64,000 bases of DNA from Burkholderiales bacterium (GCA_030683105.1 JAUXMZ010000069.1:11665-75664), one strand, 5' to 3'; positions 24,138 through 54,302 are shown, counted from the stretch's first letter. Notes: generated by a model from the letters alone, not told the origin. Numbers and translations are program-made.

Positions 24138-24330
24138 GCCACAGAGAGCACAGAGGACACAGAGATAAAAGAACAGTAAAAAATCTGTCGATCTCGAAAC
24201 CCGCTTCCCTTACGCGCTGCCAAACATCGAGCGCGCTTGAGCAAAAAAACCTTAAGACAGAACACACCAAAATTGAAAACACAACAGAGTTACTCTGCCT
24301 CTCCTCTGTGATCTCTGTGTCCTCTGTGGC
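24138..24330. repeat. Gene-less element with inverted nonamer tandem-repeat arms
   Basis: Left gccacagagagcacagaggacacagaga; right ctctgtgatctctgtgtcctctgtggc; same arms as around the GxxExxY gene. Confidence 0.88.
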
Positions 24331-30959: not shown

Positions 30960-31059
30960 AGTTTTAAATGTTGAGTTTTGAGTGCTGAGTTATTTTCTTC
31001 CCGCGGCGCATGCGCCTGCAAACTTCAAACTCAACACTCAGCACTCAGCACTCAGCACT
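30960..31059. repeat. Inverted heptamer tandem-repeat element (AGTGCTG / CACTCAG)
   Basis: Left agtttta aatgttg agttttg agtgctg agt; right aactcaa cactcag x3. Confidence 0.8.
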
Positions 31060-38411: not shown

Positions 38412-38893
38412 CCGCCGCGAACCAGACCCGCAGCCCGCGGCTTGCGCTCAGCGTGCAGCATGGCATTGCCGCAAGCAATCTGCCCTCGCGCTTCCAGCTG
38501 CGAAAATGGGCGCGCGCAGCACTCGAACATGACGCGAAGATCGCGGTGCGTATTGTGGGCCAGTCCGAAGGCCGGATGCTGAACCGCAGTTATCGCCACA
38601 AGGACTATGCGACCAATGTCCTGACCTTCATATTCCGGGAGACGCCGCCGTTCGAGGGCGACCTTGCGCTGTGCGCGCCGGTGATTACGCGCGAAGCCCG
38701 CGAGCAGGGCAAAAGCGTTGCTGCGCACTACGCGCATCTGGTGGTGCACGGCGTGCTGCATCTGCAGGGCTACGGCCACGAAAAAAAATCCGATGCCCGG
38801 GTCATGGAAAAGCGGGAATCACAGATCATCACCCAATTGGGCTATGCTGATCCTTACGGACGAGAGGCGAGAGGGGTGAGGCGTCAGGCGTAA
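38408..38893 (+). CDS. ybeY: rRNA maturation RNase YbeY
   Basis: TNVLTF, HGVLHLQGYGH. Confidence 0.94.
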   Translation: MTAANQTRSPRLALSVQHGIAASNLPSRFQLRKWARAALEHDAKIAVRIVGQSEGRMLNRSYRHKDYATNVLTFIFRETPPFEGDLALCAPVITREAREQGKSVAAHYAHLVVHGVLHLQGYGHEKKSDARVMEKRESQIITQLGYADPYGREARGVRRQA

Positions 38894-38941
38894 GGCGTGG
38901 ATTGCAGCATTACGCCTCACTCCTCACTCTTCACTCCTCAC
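38861..38941. repeat. Inverted heptamer element overlapping ybeY stop
   Basis: Left cgagagg cgagagg ggtgagg cgtcagg cgtaagg; right ttacgcc tcactcc tcactct tcactcc. Confidence 0.8.
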
Positions 38942-39782: not shown

Positions 39783-41435
39783 ATGGCGAACAAAAAAGCC
39801 GGTCAGGATACCCAAGGGGCTTCATCCTTCATCCTTCATCCTTCGTCCTTCAGAAACACCATCCTCCTTGCTTTTTTCCTGGGCGCGCTCACCGTGGCGG
39901 GGTTTGCACCGTTCTCCCTGTTTCCGCTGCCGGTACTCACGCTGGCGTTGCTGATGCGGCTGTGGACCATGCAGGCGCTGCCGCGCCGCGCCGCCGTTCT
40001 CGGTTTTGCGTTCGGGCTGGGCCTGTTTCTGTGCGGCGTGTCCTGGGTGTATATCAGTCTTCACGACTTCGGCGCCATGCCGGCAGCGCTCGCGGCGGCG
40101 GCGACATTGCTGTTCTGCATCTATCTTGCACTGTTCCCGGCGCTCGCCGGTTATCTGTTTGCGGCAACCGCGCTGCCCGTCGTCTTCCGGCTGACGCTGT
40201 TTCTCCCCGCGGCATGGACTGTGCTCGAGTGGACGCGGGGATGGCTGTTCACCGGGTTCCCATGGCTCGCGATCGGTTACTCCCAAGTCCCGCTGGGCCC
40301 GCTCGCGGGGTACGCGCCAGTGCTGGGCATCTATGGCGTGACGCTGGCCACGGTACTCAGCGCGGGACTGCTGGTCGTGCTGTGGCAGCACTGCACCGCC
40401 AATGCTGAATCCGGAATGATGAATGCGGAACAGCTGTCGCGAAAAGCGCGATTTTTTAAATTCATCGCTCATCGCTCATCGTTCATCATTTTGGCCCTCT
40501 GGCTTACCGGCTGGGCCTTGCAAAAGGTCGAATGGACACACCCCACCGGCGCTCCGTTGCAGGTCAGCCTGCTTCAGGGAAACATTCCGCAGGAACTCAA
40601 ATGGCGCGAAGACCACGTCAGGACCACCCTCGATTATTACCGCAACCTGGTCGAGACCAGCGACAGCCGGCTCATCATTCTTCCGGAAACCGCACTGCCG
40701 CTGTTTTTGCAGCATGTCCCCGCTGACTACCTGGAAACGCTTGCCGCACACGCGAAGAAACACAATGGCGACATCCTGGTCGGCGTTCCCGAAAGACTGA
40801 AAAGCGGCGATTATTACAACAGCGTGCTGTCGTTCGGCACGGCACCCACGCAAAGCTACCGCAAGTCCCATCTGGTGCCATTCGGGGAATACATCCCGCT
40901 GCGCCCCGTGCTCGGCGGAATCGTCGCCGTGCTTGCGATTCCGCTGCAGGACTTTGCGCGCGGCGAGACCACCCAGCAGCCGCTTAACGTCGCCGGGCAG
41001 CGTGTCGCAGTCAACATCTGTTATGAGGACGCGTTCGGGGAAGAAATCATCCGCCAGCTGCCGCAGGCAACGCTGCTCGTCAATGTCAGCAACGTCGCCT
41101 GGTTCGGCCGTTCGGTCGCCCCGCGGCAACATCTTCAGATCTCGCAGGCTCGCGCGCTCGAAACCGGGCGCTACATGCTGCGCGCCACCAATACCGGCGT
41201 CACGGGCGTGATCGATCAGCGCGGTCGCGTGGTACGCAGCGCACCCGAGTTCGCCACGGCCACCGTCACTCATTCTGTCCAGGGTTATCAGGGCGCGACC
41301 CCGTATGTCCGGTGGGGAAATTACGCGGTGCTGGCGCTGGCGCTGTTGCTGATGGCATCCGCCTTCGTGATACGCCATGTGCGCGCATCCAATAAACCAA
41401 CTCAACACCGCAAATTGCCGACTACGGGAACGTAA
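39783..41435 (+). CDS. lnt: Apolipoprotein N-acyltransferase
   Basis: [28 protein letters not shown]; contains repeat-derived in-frame segments. Confidence 0.94.
39821..39852. repeat. Heptamer array TTCATCC in lnt N-terminus
   Basis: ttcatcc x3, ttcgtcc, ttca. Confidence 0.85.
40401..40490. repeat. Inverted heptamer element in frame within lnt
   Basis: Left aatgctg aatccgg aatgatg aatgcgg aa; right t tcatcgc tcatcgc tcatcgt tcatcat t. Confidence 0.75.
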
Positions 41436-44571: not shown

Positions 44572-44712
44572 CGTGAATCGTAAATCGTGATTAGTGAATG
44601 GTATAAAACCAATGAGCCCCTTCTTCGTTTCTAGCGATTTACGATTTACCATTCATTCTTTTCAATACCCTCTTGAGGGGTACGATTTACCACTCACTAT
44701 TCACCATTCACG
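44572..44712. repeat. Inverted heptamer element (CGTGAAT / ATTCACG)
   Basis: Left cgtgaat cgtaaat cgtgatt agtgaat; right arms at 44636-44655 and 44681-44712. Confidence 0.82.
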
Positions 44713-49267: not shown

Positions 49268-50026
49268 TCAGGGATTGAGCTGCCGATATACCGCAGTGGC
49301 AACGCGCAGCAATTCATCTTTTGCGATCTCGGCTGAAAGCGCGTAGCCGAGTCTGCCGTCAAGCCAGTAAAACACGCCGATTTTATTTTCCCGCGCAAAG
49401 CGAAAAGCGGTCTCGCGCGCATCCTCCGCGTTGGTGCGGACATAGAGCGTGAGTCGCAGGCCTTTTGCGTCCTGGTACATGAATTGCGCGACCGGGCCGG
49501 TGTCGCCGGGTAAAAGGCGCCCGCCAACCAGGGTGTAGCCAAGCTCGCCGAGATGCGGGACCTTGAGTTGGGCGCCAAGCCGTTTCGACAGCCAGTTGAC
49601 GAGATGCGTCTCCTGGTCTGCGCCCACTTCGACCGGATGCCGCACTTCGGGGCTGTAGACGATATGCGCAATCGCCGCCCGCCGCGCAAAAGCGGCGCTG
49701 TTGGTGGACGGCGGATGCTGCATGCCGCTCAATTGCCAGCCGATCACGCCGCCCAGCGTTATCCAGGCCACTACGGCAGCATAGCGCAGCGGAAAAAAGC
49801 GCCGGCGCGCGGCCAGCGGTACCCGCAGACGCTCCGGTACGGGTTCATCGAGCACCGGATCGAACAGCCGATGCAGTTCCTCGTTCTGCCGCCGGTACGC
49901 CTGAACGCGCCCGGCTTCCTGCGGCCGTGCCGCAAGATAGGTCTCGACCTCGGCGCGACGCGCCTGAGGCAGCGCGCCATCGACGTAAGCGTGCAGGTCG
50001 GCTTCGGTAATGGTTAAATTGCTCAT
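49268..50026 (-). CDS. Transmembrane anti-sigma factor
   Basis: LHAYVDG, TM segment, HPVEV, WLSKRLG, GGRLLP; overlaps sigma stop. Confidence 0.9.
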   Translation of the reverse strand: MSNLTITEADLHAYVDGALPQARRAEVETYLAARPQEAGRVQAYRRQNEELHRLFDPVLDEPVPERLRVPLAARRRFFPLRYAAVVAWITLGGVIGWQLSGMQHPPSTNSAAFARRAAIAHIVYSPEVRHPVEVGADQETHLVNWLSKRLGAQLKVPHLGELGYTLVGGRLLPGDTGPVAQFMYQDAKGLRLTLYVRTNAEDARETAFRFARENKIGVFYWLDGRLGYALSAEIAKDELLRVATAVYRQLNP

Positions 50027-50532
50027 TTAATGACCTTCAGCGTTGTGACTTCAGGCGCTCCATCCATGATGCCGCGCAACCGCTCTCGCGCGCGCGACAA
50101 CCGCGACATGACGGTGCCGATAGGGATGCCCAGTGCCTTCGCTGTTTCCTGATACGACATCTGTTCCAGCGCAATCAGCAGCAACACTTCGCGCTGCTCG
50201 TCGGGAAGCCTGGCCAGCGCCGCATCCAGATCGCGGATTTCGAGCCGGTCGGCCTGCGCCATATGCCCGGGGAGTTCCATGATTTCGTCGTTGAGCGGCA
50301 CATCTGCCGCCACTTTGCGCCCCCGCACCTGATTGATGAACACGTTATGCATGATGGTGAAGAGCCAGGCCCGCAGGTCGCTGCCGCGCCGCCACAGATG
50401 CAGCTTGTTGCAGGCGCGCTCCAGCGTATCCTGCACCAGATCGTCCGCGGCAGTGCGCTCCCTGGTCAGCGCCCGCGCGTAGCGGCGCAACCGGGGAATA
50501 TGCGGGACGACCTGCGTGCCGAACTCTTCCAA
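50023..50532 (-). CDS. ECF RNA polymerase sigma factor
   Basis: LRRYARAL, ADDLVQDT, WLFTIMHN, GTVMSRLSRAR. Confidence 0.93.
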   Translation of the reverse strand: MEEFGTQVVPHIPRLRRYARALTRERTAADDLVQDTLERACNKLHLWRRGSDLRAWLFTIMHNVFINQVRGRKVAADVPLNDEIMELPGHMAQADRLEIRDLDAALARLPDEQREVLLLIALEQMSYQETAKALGIPIGTVMSRLSRARERLRGIMDGAPEVTTLKVIK

Positions 50533-50915: not shown

Positions 50916-52337
50916 CTATTTGCCCGGCTTGGCCGGACGGATTGGCCCACCGAAGACGTGTTCGTCCAACTGCCAGCGCGAAGCAAGTGTTTCGACTGCA
51001 TTCAGGATTTCCTCGGCGCGAGTCGGATGGTTGTAGGCTGCTCCGGCCAGTTTTTTAAGGGCATCGCCGGTACCGAACTCCACGCCCAGAATGTGTATCA
51101 ACTCGGAAGCATCCTTGCCGACGATCTCGGCCCCAAGCAGGCGGCCGCTGTCCATGTCGGCGATCAGGCGCACGAAGCCGCGTGCATCACCCTGCCCGAG
51201 CGCGGCGGGATTGACGCCGAACGCGGTAAAACCGACAGCGGGTTCGATGTCGCGGGCTTCGGCCAAATCCTCGTTTAATCCGATGCGCGCGAGTTCCAGT
51301 GCGGAATAGACGACTTCGGGCACCGCATCGTCATCTCGCTGCCGTGACTGCGGCGCGATGATGTTCGCCACGGCGACTGCCGCCTCCGCCAGCGCGTGAT
51401 TGGAGGTCATCGCCCGGTTTGCCACATCGCCTATGGCATAAACCGATGGGGCGCTCGTCTGCTGGCAGGCATCGACCTTGATGTATCCCTCGCCATCGAT
51501 ATCAACCTCCGCCGCAGCCAGTCCCAGACCGGCCGTGTGCGGCACGCGGCCTGCGCCCAGCAACACCCAGTCGACGGTCTCCCGGGTGCCGTCCGGCAGC
51601 GTCAGTATCACGCCAGCCGCGCCGACCTCGGCCGCCGTCACACGGCTCGCGGTTCGCGGCCGGATACCGAGGGCGGAACACGCTTCCTGCAAAGCCTTGA
51701 GCGCCGGCGCGCTGTAGGCGCTGCGCGACAGCGGTTCCTGTTGCATCAGCCAGACGACGTCGAGCCCGAACATGCTGAGTATGAATGCAAATTCAGCACC
51801 AATCACGCCCGAACCGATCAGCGCGACGCGTTTACCGGCGGGCGGCTCGCGGTCAAACAGGTCATCGGTCGTAAGTATGCGGTCCCGGACGGGCTGAAGG
51901 TTTGAGGGAACGAAAGGTGACGAGCCCGTGGCTACGATCACGTGCGCGGCAGCTACCTGAATTTCATCCCCCACGGCCAGGGTATTGCGATCGAGAAAAC
52001 GCGCGGCGCCCTGCATTGTCCTGACACCGAGTCGGTTCAGATAGTCGGTATAGCTCTCGCGCACTTTGGCCACGACACCGCGCTGATGATGCCAGGCGCC
52101 GGACAGGTCGCCGCGCAGCGCGCCCTCGATCCCGCGCGCATCAAACTCGCGGCTGGCCTCGAGCAGGCGCGCGCTGTGATACCAGTCTTTCTTCGGCACG
52201 CAGCCGCGGTTAAGGCAACAGCCGCCCCACTGGTGTTTTTCGACGATGGCGACCTTGAGCCCGCGCAGCGCGGCCAGCACCGCGGCGCGGTAGCCGCCGG
52301 GCCCGGAACCGATGATGGCAAGGTCAAAGTTGTTCAT
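50916..52337 (-). CDS. Dihydrolipoyl dehydrogenase-like flavoprotein
   Basis: GSGPGG, GGCCLNRGCVPKK disulfide motif, GSGVIG, YAIGD, HPTRAE. Confidence 0.85.
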   Translation of the reverse strand: MNNFDLAIIGSGPGGYRAAVLAALRGLKVAIVEKHQWGGCCLNRGCVPKKDWYHSARLLEASREFDARGIEGALRGDLSGAWHHQRGVVAKVRESYTDYLNRLGVRTMQGAARFLDRNTLAVGDEIQVAAAHVIVATGSSPFVPSNLQPVRDRILTTDDLFDREPPAGKRVALIGSGVIGAEFAFILSMFGLDVVWLMQQEPLSRSAYSAPALKALQEACSALGIRPRTASRVTAAEVGAAGVILTLPDGTRETVDWVLLGAGRVPHTAGLGLAAAEVDIDGEGYIKVDACQQTSAPSVYAIGDVANRAMTSNHALAEAAVAVANIIAPQSRQRDDDAVPEVVYSALELARIGLNEDLAEARDIEPAVGFTAFGVNPAALGQGDARGFVRLIADMDSGRLLGAEIVGKDASELIHILGVEFGTGDALKKLAGAAYNHPTRAEEILNAVETLASRWQLDEHVFGGPIRPAKPGK

Positions 52338-52345
52338 AGAATCTA

Positions 52346-52758
52346 GCCACAGAGATCACAGAGATCACAGAGAAACTCGCTTGATTCCGTGTACGAGTTT
52401 TTCGGCACCAAAATTGATTATCAGGGCTCTCTTCAATCCTGTGACTGTCAGATAGGACAAGACCTGTGCGGTTGCAACTTCAGGAACAGTGCGCAGTGAT
52501 TTTATTTCTACCACAACCTGATTATTTACCAAGAGATCGAGCCGCTGGCCCTGAATGGCACAGTCCTTATATTTGACTTCCACAGCAACTTGCTTTTGAA
52601 AGGGCATGCCCCGAAGTGACACCTCATGGCACAACGCCTCCTGATAAATCGATTCCAGCAAACCCGGGCCAAGAAGCTTGTGCACCTCGACTGCGGCGCC
52701 AATTATCGCTTCGGTGAGATCATCACTCATCGTGGCCTGCCTTTATATACTCTGTGGC
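52346..52758 (-). mobile_element. GxxExxY cassette bounded by inverted nonamer-repeat arms (mobility inferred)
   Basis: gccacagagatcacagagatcacagaga at 52346-52373 and ctctgtggc ending 52758 enclose the ORF. Confidence 0.6.
52365..52730 (-). CDS. GxxExxY protein (PD-(D/E)XK nuclease fold)
   Basis: GPGLLESIY, RLDLLV...VVEIK, AQVLSYL, INFG; visibly AT-richer than neighbours. Confidence 0.93.
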   Translation of the reverse strand: MSDDLTEAIIGAAVEVHKLLGPGLLESIYQEALCHEVSLRGMPFQKQVAVEVKYKDCAIQGQRLDLLVNNQVVVEIKSLRTVPEVATAQVLSYLTVTGLKRALIINFGAEKLVHGIKRVSL

Positions 52759-52782
52759 AAAAAGCCACGTCAACCTTCATTC

Positions 52783-52859
52783 GCCACAGAGAGCGCAGAG
52801 TTCACAAAGAAAACCCCTTTAGTCGGGAAAAACTCTGTGTTCTCTGTGTCCTCTGTGGC
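52783..52859. repeat. Gene-less nonamer inverted element
   Basis: gccacagagagcgcagagttcacaaaga ... ctctgtgttctctgtgtcctctgtggc. Confidence 0.88.
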
Positions 52860-52865
52860 AAAAAA

Positions 52866-54302
52866 CTACACGAGAAAAACGGTAGCCAGTCCCAGGAAAA
52901 TAAAAAACCCCCCGCTATCCGTTATCGCGGTGATCATCACGCTCGCTCCCACCGCCGGATCGCGGCCGAGCTTTTGCATCAGCAACGGGATGGTCACGCC
53001 CATCACCGCGGCCAGCAGCAGATTAAGGACCATCGCGCTGGTCATCACCACGCCCAATTGCCAGCTGTGATAAATCAGGAAGGCGAACAGGCCCACCACG
53101 CTGCCCCAGATCAGGCCGTTTAACGCGCTGACGCCGATTTCCTTGGCAAACAGCTTGCGCGCGCTCGTCGTCGTGATCTGGCCCAGCGCAAGGGCGCGCA
53201 CGATCATGGTGATGGTCTGGTTGCCGGAATTGCCGCCGATGCCGGCAATGATGGGCATCAGCGCCGCCAGGGCCACGATGCTGGCGATCGAGTCCTCGAA
53301 CACCCCGATCACCCGCGATGCGATGAACGCCGTCACCAGGTTGATCGCCAGCCAGGCCCAGCGGTTTTTCACGCTCTTCCATACCGAGGCGAACAGGTCT
53401 TCATCTTCGCGCAGACCGCCGGCGGACAGCATATCGCTGTCGGTTGCTTCACGGATGAAATCGACCACGGCATTGACCGTGACGCGCCCGATCAGGCGGC
53501 CAGCGCCGTCGACGACCGGTGCCGACACCAGATCGTAGCGTTCGAACGCGAGCGCCGCATCCTGGGCCTTTTCATCCGGATGAAAATCAACCAGTTCCCT
53601 GACCATCACCGATTCGACCAGGGTTTCGGGATCGGCAATCAGCAGCCGGTTGGTCGGCAGCAGGCCCTTCAGGTGTTCTTCGCGGTCGACCACGAACAAC
53701 TGGTCGGTATGGTCCGGCATTTCCTCGAACCGCCGCAGGTAACGCAGCACGACCTCCACCGTGACGTCGTCGCGCACGCTGATCACATCGAAGTCCATCA
53801 GCGCACCGACCGAGTCCTCCGGATACGACATCGCCGAGCGCAGCTGCTCGCGTTCCTCGACCGGCAGCGACTTGAACACATCGAGAATAACCTCGCGCGG
53901 CAGGTCGGGCGCAAGATCGGCGATCTCGTCGGTGTCGAGCTGGCCGGTGGCGGCGACCAGTTCGTGCTCGTCCATGTGCGCGATCAGCGTCTCGCGCACC
54001 GCATCGGAGACTTCCAGCAGGATATCGCCGTCGCGCTCCGCCCTGACGAGATCCCAGACGATCAGCCGCTGCTCGACGGGCAGCGCTTCGAGTATGTTCG
54101 CAACGTCGGCGGGATGGAGCTTGTCGAGCAGCTTTTGCAGCTCGACCAGGTGCAGCTTGTGCACCAGCGTCTCGACCAGTTCCTGGCGCGGCCCTTCCTG
54201 GCGGTGGACGAGATTCTCCACCAGCTCGTGCTTGTGCAATAGCGCAGTCACCTGCTCCAGGCTCTCCTGCACGCCAGCACGGATGTCTTCAGGTTCGGTC
54301 AT
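52866..54302 (-). CDS. mgtE: Magnesium transporter MgtE
   Basis: LHPAD, CBS pair, GGNSGNQT, DPA...TAITD. Confidence 0.94.
   Translation of the reverse strand: MTEPEDIRAGVQESLEQVTALLHKHELVENLVHRQEGPRQELVETLVHKLHLVELQKLLDKLHPADVANILEALPVEQRLIVWDLVRAERDGDILLEVSDAVRETLIAHMDEHELVAATGQLDTDEIADLAPDLPREVILDVFKSLPVEEREQLRSAMSYPEDSVGALMDFDVISVRDDVTVEVVLRYLRRFEEMPDHTDQLFVVDREEHLKGLLPTNRLLIADPETLVESVMVRELVDFHPDEKAQDAALAFERYDLVSAPVVDGAGRLIGRVTVNAVVDFIREATDSDMLSAGGLREDEDLFASVWKSVKNRWAWLAINLVTAFIASRVIGVFEDSIASIVALAALMPIIAGIGGNSGNQTITMIVRALALGQITTTSARKLFAKEIGVSALNGLIWGSVVGLFAFLIYHSWQLGVVMTSAMVLNLLLAAVMGVTIPLLMQKLGRDPAVGASVMITAITDSGGFFIFLGLATVFLV

Follow-up and report, generated by a model that had tools for sequence, protein, structure and literature searches.

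The subject of this analysis is a candidate mobile cassette, a small gene of the GxxExxY family bracketed by inverted arrays of a short tandem repeat, in a 64,000-nucleotide stretch of DNA from a Burkholderiales bacterium (GCA_030683105.1, JAUXMZ010000069.1:11665-75664; hereafter, the window, which represents contig C20 of the 4.12-Mb, 78-contig assembly G000 and to which coordinates refer unless another contig is named). Several described systems resemble this cassette in part. As described by Bertels and Rainey (2011, PMC3116915), REPINs (hairpin-forming doublets of repetitive extragenic palindromes, REPs) and RAYTs (REP-associated tyrosine transposases) share with it a small nuclease-type gene with inverted copies of its cognate repeat on both sides, intergenic hairpins formed by hundreds of inverted doublets that lack the gene, and paralogs each with its own repeat “flavour,” a diversity that suggests gene-repeat co-evolution. 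The intervening sequence (IVS) of the Coxiella 23S rRNA, a selfish element according to PMC4990558, likewise consists of a small open reading frame (ORF) between terminal inverted repeats that contain tandem short repeats, with a 28-bp inverted-repeat stem, three tandem GACAGAT heptamers ahead of the S23p ORF, and an RNase III cut at the first repeat. In Geobacter metallireducens, paired tandem octa- and heptanucleotide arrays (4–5 units of 7–8 bp on opposite strands, at variable distances, in many intergenic copies, all of which is paralleled here) are annotated as putative IHF/HU “global regulator binding sites” in PMC2700814. Miniature inverted-repeat transposable elements (MITEs) and their autonomous transposons resemble the present system in that a few copies with the gene and many with internal deletions carry common terminal inverted repeats, and in that presence or absence varies between related genomes. 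The short tandemly repeated repetitive (STRR) sequences of cyanobacteria are heptamer arrays resembling such paired tandem arrays.

We propose that the locus carries a copy of a compact cassette that moves horizontally and has MITE- or REPIN-like gene-less derivatives, a reading to which we assign a probability of roughly 0.6; the narrower claim that the gene and its arms form one mobile unit with gene-less derivatives is highly probable. In its logic the system resembles REPIN-RAYT and MITEs; it differs from them in its enzyme as well as in the architecture of its arms. The GxxExxY enzyme is a PD-(D/E)XK nuclease of about 120 aa, whereas RAYT is an IS200/IS605-like HUH tyrosine transposase; a GxxExxY arm consists of 2–5 tandem, non-palindromic 8–10-bp units with free spacers, in contrast to the palindrome of about 20 bp that constitutes a REP; close GxxExxY relatives are spread over phyla, with several paralogs per genome possible; and arrays of this type also occur in genomes without the gene. 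Unlike the 23S rRNA IVS, the element resides between mgtE and lpd rather than in rRNA helix 25 or 45, its cargo is a nuclease rather than a helical bundle, its units are 8–10 bp rather than 7 bp long, and the system has hundreds of gene-less copies. The differences from MITEs and autonomous transposons are the lack of a DDE, serine or tyrosine transposase in the cassette, mostly unrelated interiors (93 of 136 are singletons), and arms that are repeat arrays; no target-site duplication was detectable in one filled and empty pair, the flanks of which, at about 80% identity, are too divergent for the ends to be placed. The G. metallireducens arrays differ in their units (GTTGCTYN and MTYCTGA), and the available text of PMC2700814 reports no gene association. 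No link between the GxxExxY family and such repeats was found in the literature searched, most subscription journals and supplements being outside the scope of the search.

The locus and the related elements in the window comprise the following features (basis in parentheses; strand given for genes only):

52365–52730, minus strand: GxxExxY / PDDEXK_3 gene, 121 aa (ORF call, profile matches, conserved residues, model, GC content)
52346–52374: arm at the 3' side of the gene, GCC plus three units of CACAGAGNN on the plus strand (sequence, Tandem Repeats Finder)
52750–52758: partner arm, inverted, one unit, CTCTGTGGC on the plus strand and GCCACAGAG on the coding strand (sequence, RNA fold)
52754–52768: small hairpin GTGGC-AAAAA-GCCAC overlapping the outer end of the single-unit arm (read from the sequence)
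52783–52859: gene-less miniature element, arms 52783–52809 and 52833–52859, interior 23 nt (sequence, repeat search, fold)
24138–24330: second gene-less CACAGAG element, arms 24138–24166 and 24303–24330, interior about 137 nt, between convergent ORFs (repeat search)
52866–54302, minus strand: mgtE, the upstream neighbour, its stop codon abutting the T-run and GCC end of the gene-less element (ORF call, profile, junction comparison)
50916–52337, minus strand: Lpd-like FAD/NAD (pyridine-nucleotide-disulphide) oxidoreductase gene (lpd), the downstream neighbour, with its ATG 8 nt past the array (ORF call, profile, junction comparison)

The genes mgtE, GxxExxY and lpd are thus all on the minus strand and co-oriented. 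Positions 52346–52372 of the plus strand read as a GCC cap followed by three CACAGAG heptamers separated by AT (2.9 copies with 100% match in Tandem Repeats Finder); the stop codon of the GxxExxY gene (52365–52367) falls within this array, and the last two codons together with the stop (TCT CTG TGA on the minus strand) are made of it. At the other end, the single inverted unit ctctgtggc (52750–52758) lies 19 nt upstream of the ATG. The window contains 17 copies of CACAGAG where 5.76 are expected, a count reached in none of 100 shuffles, and the reversed control pattern had no match in any of the 41 genomes searched. The base composition of the gene is foreign, with a GC content of 0.486 compared with 0.643 and 0.624 for the neighbours, and a third-position GC content (GC3) of 0.51 compared with 0.74 and 0.82. 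An earlier note, made from this DNA alone, had described most of this layout, namely, the 121-aa ORF with the D of RLDLLV and the ExK of VEIK, the co-oriented mgtE and Lpd-like flanks, the AT-richer gene, the stop codon inside the array and the two gene-less arm pairs, and the ORF calls, profile matches, conserved residues and composition bear it out; the inverted arm that it placed upstream of the ATG does exist, not as a degenerate array but as one intact unit.

Assignment of the encoded protein to the GxxExxY family is secure. The protein matches TIGR04256 (GxxExxY) with an E-value of 4e-38 (130.4 bits, cut-off 35) and PF13366 (PDDEXK_3), its sole Pfam match, with 8.3e-38 (129.8 bits, cut-off 22); the function of the latter family was listed as unknown in a 2012 survey of the PD-(D/E)XK superfamily. 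The family motif is G23-L-L-E26-S-I-Y29 and the nuclease signature E26...D65...E75-x-K77 is intact; across 102 sequences, E26 and Y29 never vary, and conservation of D65, E75 and K77 is 90% or higher. An AlphaFold2 model built from the 102-sequence alignment (predicted local distance difference test, pLDDT, 94.3; predicted template modelling score, pTM, 0.88) has the element order H-H-E-E-E-H-E, and its top structural neighbours are PD-(D/E)XK nucleases: Cas4 SSO0001 (Z 7.9), BpuSI (7.8), CinB (7.7), BglII (7.4) and Hjc (6.9). Because all structural matches have Z below 8, the model can be considered to establish the fold class (restriction-endonuclease-like alpha/beta) and points to no specific relative; a sequence-profile search of the Protein Data Bank (PDB) yielded no relative, and a Foldseek search of the model against the PDB yielded nothing at E ≤0.001. 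A homodimer prediction (score 0.00) speaks neither for nor against a dimer. About 20 of the top 150 cluster representatives (P0001-P0003, P0007, P0008 and others) are 240–295 aa long and match the query twice; these apparent tandem double GxxExxY proteins, which may be true fusions or merged gene calls, hint at a dimeric unit. The family is large, with 16,587 matches at E ≤0.001 and 4,239 at E ≤1e-10 among 1.84 billion cluster representatives searched. No transposase of the DDE, serine, tyrosine or HUH type was found in the cassette, which contains one ORF, matching PF13366 only.

That gene and arms belong together is strongly supported by the comparison of GxxExxY loci across genomes. TIGR04256 matches were detected in 18 of 41 relatives, and among the 30 loci retrieved, inverted tandem arrays surround nearly every gene, with a unit that varies by gene subfamily (CACAGAG, CGCAGAG, CGCCAAG, CGCAAAG, CGCGAAG, CACGGAG, CGCAGAT(A), CGCCGAT and ACAGGATT). 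A one-genome-per-species scan with the pattern LGPGLLES[AIV]Y, which derives from a six-sequence alignment and samples part of the family rather than GxxExxY genes at random, added 80 loci from Acidobacteriota, Planctomycetota, Chloroflexota, Verrucomicrobiota, Bacteroidota, Chlamydiota, Thermodesulfobacteriota, Nitrospirota, Actinomycetota, Spirochaetota, a Methanothrix and others (loci L002 and L019, from the unpublished genome G013, are included in the locus and tree counts, and no claim is made on them alone). At least three copies of one CRCNNA[GT] heptamer core were found in the flanks of 98 of the 105 loci, from at least 15 phyla, but in only 10 of 193 shifted controls, an outcome in favour of the earlier note, which had proposed a test of this kind. 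The best ungapped inverted repeat between the 220-bp flanks exceeded the 95th percentile of the controls at 64 of 78 loci, and a score of at least 14.5 was reached at 58 of the 78 compared with 1 of 293 shifted controls. Repeat periods in these loci are 8–10 bp, and the usual layout is a gene within one arm pair. One of the cassettes lies on an annotated plasmid of the cultured Bacteroides finegoldii, in the order radA, GxxExxY, FAD-dependent protein, with the arms present and unannotated (homologue L163); another cultured strain with a homologue is Ramlibacter sp. Leaf400 (L085).

The type of arm follows the protein phylogeny. In a quick IQ-TREE maximum-likelihood tree of 105 proteins, the arm labels require 43 changes compared with a mean of 56.1 for shuffled labels, and none of 200 shuffles was as low; well-supported clades with one arm type include those with CGC[AC]GAT (10-bp period) and CGCCAAG arms as well as the window's own clade, all 11 rows of which have GCC-capped CACAGAG arms with a 9-bp period. 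This clade unites betaproteobacterial relatives of G000 with Planctomycetota, Acidobacteriota and Hydrogenedentota, the three phyla that also provide the closest relatives (61–68% identity; GCC-capped 9-bp arms likewise), which, together with the low GC content of the gene, indicates horizontal transfer.

Within G000, gene-bearing elements are greatly outnumbered by gene-less ones. Heptamers fall into 443 clusters in this genome, 210 of which contain exactly three units; there are 145 plus/minus inverted arm pairs, 141 of them gene-less with interiors of 4–175 bp. The four larger interiors span 367, 377, 510 and 1823 bp, and the first three contain GxxExxY genes, on C27 (62% identical to the window protein), C20 (the window's own) and C73 (39%); the arms of the fourth paralog (C40, 34% identical) are degenerate, of the CACGAAG and CACAAGG types, so that all four GxxExxY paralogs of G000 are arm-flanked. 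The 1823-bp pair, one side of which is a single heptamer, probably reflects chance; at C11:136093-137941, a three-unit GAGACACAGAGGA-type arm lies 1.8 kb from a lone heptamer, and the interval harbors a 217-aa ORF. The consensus of 278 ends is aAAA..aAAAa..tTTA-GCC-ACAGAG-rn-CACAGAG-ww-CACAGAG-rAAAa, with near-invariant cores, the conservation of which owes partly to how the elements were found, and varying spacers. A single family of about 60 bp accounts for 37 of 136 interiors and the 93 singletons for most of the rest; comparison of the gene-less interiors with the four G000 GxxExxY genes revealed no gene remnants, only a shared hairpin module of about 30 nt. This module (ACCCGCTTGACGGGT or GTACCCCTCAAGGGGGTAT, plus an TTGAAAAGAA-like tail) is nested between repeat units in arms of differing core types, at C40:29085-29115 and in several gene-less elements of G000 as well as at L113 (G005), L114 (G002) and L011 (G007), and looks like a second, smaller insertion element targeting the arrays.

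Repeat arrays are enriched in gene-bearing genomes, a correlation that the earlier note had proposed to test. There are 551 copies of CACAGAGNNCACAGAG in G000 and 104–220 in three congeners, but 1 in the congener G004, which has no GxxExxY gene, and 0 in most of the order. Of 251 genomes sampled evenly from the class, 36 have a GxxExxY gene. Triple arrays of the general core reach at least 10 hits in 17 of the 36 gene-bearing genomes compared with 17 of the 215 others (odds ratio 10.4, Fisher p 5e-8, uncorrected for kinship), and at least 50 hits in 13 of 36 compared with 6 of 215.

The junction between mgtE and lpd is polymorphic for the insertion. In the congener G004, the TGA of mgtE is followed directly by the ATG of lpd, with nothing between, an empty site of the kind that the earlier note had proposed to look for. 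The CACAGAG cassette occupies this junction in G000, G003, G012 (another genus) and, as a 5'-deleted pseudogene, G005; G001 and G002 instead carry a cassette of the CGCCGAT type with a decayed gene of another clade. Two cassette families at one junction, together with an empty site, argue for insertion or replacement at the DNA level, and the occupancy common to several genera shows that copies can be old. In the family's other genera, mgtE and lpd are not adjacent, and the sigma-factor gene lies directly after mgtE (L119 in G015, L121 in G010), which makes lpd itself look like an insertion in the g1 and g7 lineages; in the window, an ECF (extracytoplasmic function) sigma factor and an anti-sigma-like ORF are found downstream of lpd (49268–50532). 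Among contigs from four read sets (X1–X4), one of 878 nt spans 51976–52862 and shows that a near-identical strain has the gene in place; joints in these sets were traced to gene-less copies elsewhere and not to an empty allele.

Two observations bear on the origin of the gene-less copies. A gene-less element at the mgtE-lpd junction of G003 keeps the first 13 codons of a GxxExxY ORF; and in a Parachlamydiales metagenome-assembled genome, the terminal repeats of the gene (about 46 nt, with distinctive spacers and an inner non-array part) recur joined by about 15 nt as the dominant gene-less family. Taken together, the 13-codon remnant and the joined terminal repeats indicate that gene-less copies are internal-deletion derivatives of gene-bearing ones. 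The Parachlamydiales copies are flanked by a T-run and an A-run, one on each side; these runs prolong the inverted repeat and do not form a direct repeat.

A mechanism compatible with these findings can be sketched. The cassette is a minimal PD-(D/E)XK nuclease gene bracketed by inverted arrays of its own repeat (GCC-capped, with CACAGAG and a spacer of 2 nt as the unit), and it occupies precisely the gap from the stop codon of mgtE to the start codon of lpd. On this reading, the approximately 141 gene-less arm pairs of G000 are miniature derivatives of such cassettes, two terminal repeats joined by a short loop, in the relation of a MITE or REPIN to its parent. The nuclease, probably as an oligomer, would bind the conserved heptamer cores of both arms and cut at the array boundary, leaving excision or copying to be completed by the replication or repair machinery of the host. 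Binding and cutting of the heptamer cores by the nuclease falls slightly short of an even chance in our estimate; that the enzyme itself moves the arrays is likewise an inference. When transcribed from the host operon, the arms might pair into a long stem, such that the cassette would be tolerated in operons at low cost, similarly to the 23S IVS excised by RNase III. Of the central idea of the earlier note, that the protein recognizes or spreads the nonamer arms, the association of gene and arms is strongly supported (4 of 4 paralogs, 98 of 105 loci, clade tracking, array enrichment in gene-bearing genomes and the empty site), whereas the role of the nuclease stays conditional.

Several observations weigh against the mobile-cassette reading. 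PD-(D/E)XK enzymes hydrolyse DNA and do not join it, so that the complete chemistry of transposition is missing. In the one aligned pair of filled and empty sites, no target-site duplication is definable, the flanks being only about 80% identical. Some layouts depart from the usual one, with the gene between two complete small elements (L032, L037, L054, L065) or with outward-facing arms (L084, L110). Arm type often differs between close proteins (for example, CACAGAG and CACGAAG), mainly at core positions 4–5, which makes the arm-clade match loose. Several junctions are syntenic across genera (mgtE-lpd and, putatively, ispD-ispF), so that many copies are old and vertically inherited. The latter junction comes from the CGCCAAG cassettes L002, L003, L020 and L025 (in G013, G006, G003 and G007), where the downstream ORF begins with MRIGQGFD and the junction is provisionally read from the sequence as ispD-ispF; its occurrence in several genera suggests long vertical retention in an essential operon. 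A phage collection contained no match and the 7 matching records among 72,556 plasmid records are all typed as non-mobilizable, so that no vehicle is obvious.

The dependence of arrays on the gene is also far from strict. Half of the array-rich genomes in the class sample (17 of 34) have no GxxExxY match, among them G117 (201 hits) and G058, a 100% complete genome in one contig (98 hits); G008 has 196 copies of CACAGAGNNCACAGAG, all in short pairs, with no gene detected, although contigs break at such repeats; and 19 of the 36 gene-bearing genomes have fewer than 10 arrays by a pattern that excludes the 10-bp and ACAGGATT types. G000 itself contains other arm families, CGC[AC]GAT (172 arms), CGCCAAG (47), CGC[AG]AAG (48), ACAGGAT (32), CACGAAG (30) and CACGGAG (23), all of them gene-less and without a cognate gene, there being four GxxExxY genes in total, along with the 7-bp arrays AACCTTG (34 arms) and CACCAAT (59 arms). 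Moreover, genes that do not encode nucleases have analogous arms. All 7 genes of G000 for the four-helix-bundle “23S rRNA IVS protein” (TIGR02436; S23p) adjoin tandem heptamer arrays:

G000, loci L156–L162: TIGR02436 genes at C2:29186, C72:60469, C72:59169, C58:59, C11:5689, C38:44876 and C38:45237

The heptamer differs per paralog (GAGTGAR, AGTGATT, GTGAAGG, GTTCCAG, AATCGTG, CACCAAT), and by eye the arms of 5 of the 7 are inverted, those of the tandem pair on C38 being direct. A nuclease is therefore not required for the arm architecture. The gene-less array-rich genomes, the 172 gene-less CGC[AC]GAT arms and the S23p arms all speak against strict dependence of the arrays on the nuclease.

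The main rival of the mobile cassette is a homing-type invasion, in which the arm pairs are independent, pre-existing palindromic intergenic repeats moved or kept by something else, and GxxExxY, a selfish endonuclease directed at them, enters through repair that uses the arms as homology. Besides the arrays that abound in genomes without the gene and the G000 families that lack a cognate gene, the presence of the gene in only 3–4 of the roughly 145 pairs in G000, the genes placed between two complete small elements and the two different cassettes at one junction in congeners all speak for such a scenario. Against it, the gene-less copies consist of the long terminal repeats of the gene-bearing element itself, inner non-array part included, and one gene-less element retains a 5' gene remnant, which points to derivation from gene-bearing copies; furthermore, the distribution of the arrays is patchy (34 of 251 genomes) and coincides with that of the gene, which is hard to explain for an independent host feature, and nothing else able to move arrays was identified. 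On balance, we consider homing unlikely.

Somewhat less probable still, as the sole function, is an RNA-level module akin to the rRNA IVS, the arms of which would mainly form a double-stranded RNA stem cut by RNase III, freeing the cassette from host transcripts, with the role of the protein unrelated to the arms and spread by another route. The stem, heptamers and RNase III cut of the Coxiella IVS, as given in PMC4990558, are a precedent; cassettes sit at tight gene junctions, a simple scan of the interval from mgtE to the GxxExxY gene detected nothing resembling a promoter, and the gene-less element (52778–52864) folds at -44.5 kcal/mol (z -8.0). The whole gene-bearing element, however, folds no better than shuffles (z -1.25), even if the outermost units do pair in the predicted fold (52750–52758 with the outermost unit of the opposite arm). 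Spacers of the two arms of one element are identical at 2.55 of 6 positions compared with 2.69 of 6 between different elements (permutation p 0.90), so that perfect arm pairing is not selected. A search of sequencing runs for RNA that contains the stretch found none. None of 40 GxxExxY loci lies in or beside an rRNA or any Rfam family at the gathering score, and an Rfam scan of the window locus returned sub-threshold chance rows only (mir-156 with 24 bits where 62 are needed, and isrG). The neighbours are co-oriented in 77 of 101 and in 69 of 99 cases, roughly the level common for adjacent genes in bacteria, and such a module would explain tolerance but not spread or the co-variation of arms with protein clades. 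An RNA-level role is nevertheless compatible with the mobile-cassette reading and may explain the location of cassettes between tightly linked genes.

That the units are domesticated binding sites for a nucleoid or regulatory protein, with GxxExxY a host factor merely adjacent to some of them, would fit the IHF/HU annotation of the G. metallireducens arrays (PMC2700814) and the conserved cores with free spacers, but is very improbable in view of the foreign composition of the gene, its patchy, horizontally transferred distribution across phyla, the pseudogenes and empty sites in congeners, and the range of copy numbers from 1 to 551 within one genus.

Under the mobile-cassette reading, a large protein family becomes tied to a specific, recognizable DNA architecture and thereby acquires a testable role, binding or cutting of its own repeat arrays; the finding also accounts for a class of abundant intergenic repeats at which assemblies break and which were earlier read as regulator sites. 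Should the nuclease move the arrays, a partnership of the REPIN/RAYT kind would exist a second time, independently and with another enzyme fold, and the system would also be a candidate source of compact, sequence-programmable DNA-recognition modules, because the core heptamer shifts with the protein clade. The parallel with S23p genes and the rRNA IVS, the one setting in which, by analogy, the arm architecture is already known, bears on the long-open question of what those elements are. More speculatively, and with less confidence than in the activity of the nuclease, all these elements could belong to a pan-bacterial class of mobile cassettes, which we have not found described, in which inverted short-tandem-repeat arrays enclose tiny genes, each recognizing its own unit and seeding hundreds of gene-less copies: GxxExxY nucleases with 8–10-bp units and S23p/Avd-like four-helix-bundle proteins with 7-bp units would then make up one class. 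Were this the case, the 23S rRNA IVS, the Geobacter paired arrays and perhaps the STRR repeats would be faces of one system, and GxxExxY would represent a new kind of element-mobilizing nuclease, with a chemistry unlike that of any known transposase.

The window contains additional arrays of the heptamer kind. A gene-less palindromic element with GGTGAGG-like and CCTCACT-like arms lies between two genes at 38861–38941, and further heptamer arrays are present at 452–521 (CTCACGC x10), 31029–31059, 39820–39852, 40462–40487 and 44685–44711; these are probably the heptamer counterpart of the nonamer elements. Finally, inside mgtE (53163–53324), contig depth in the read sets jumps, up to about 385 in X1, with one contig at a depth of 1251, which suggests a short stretch common to abundant other organisms, or a repeat.

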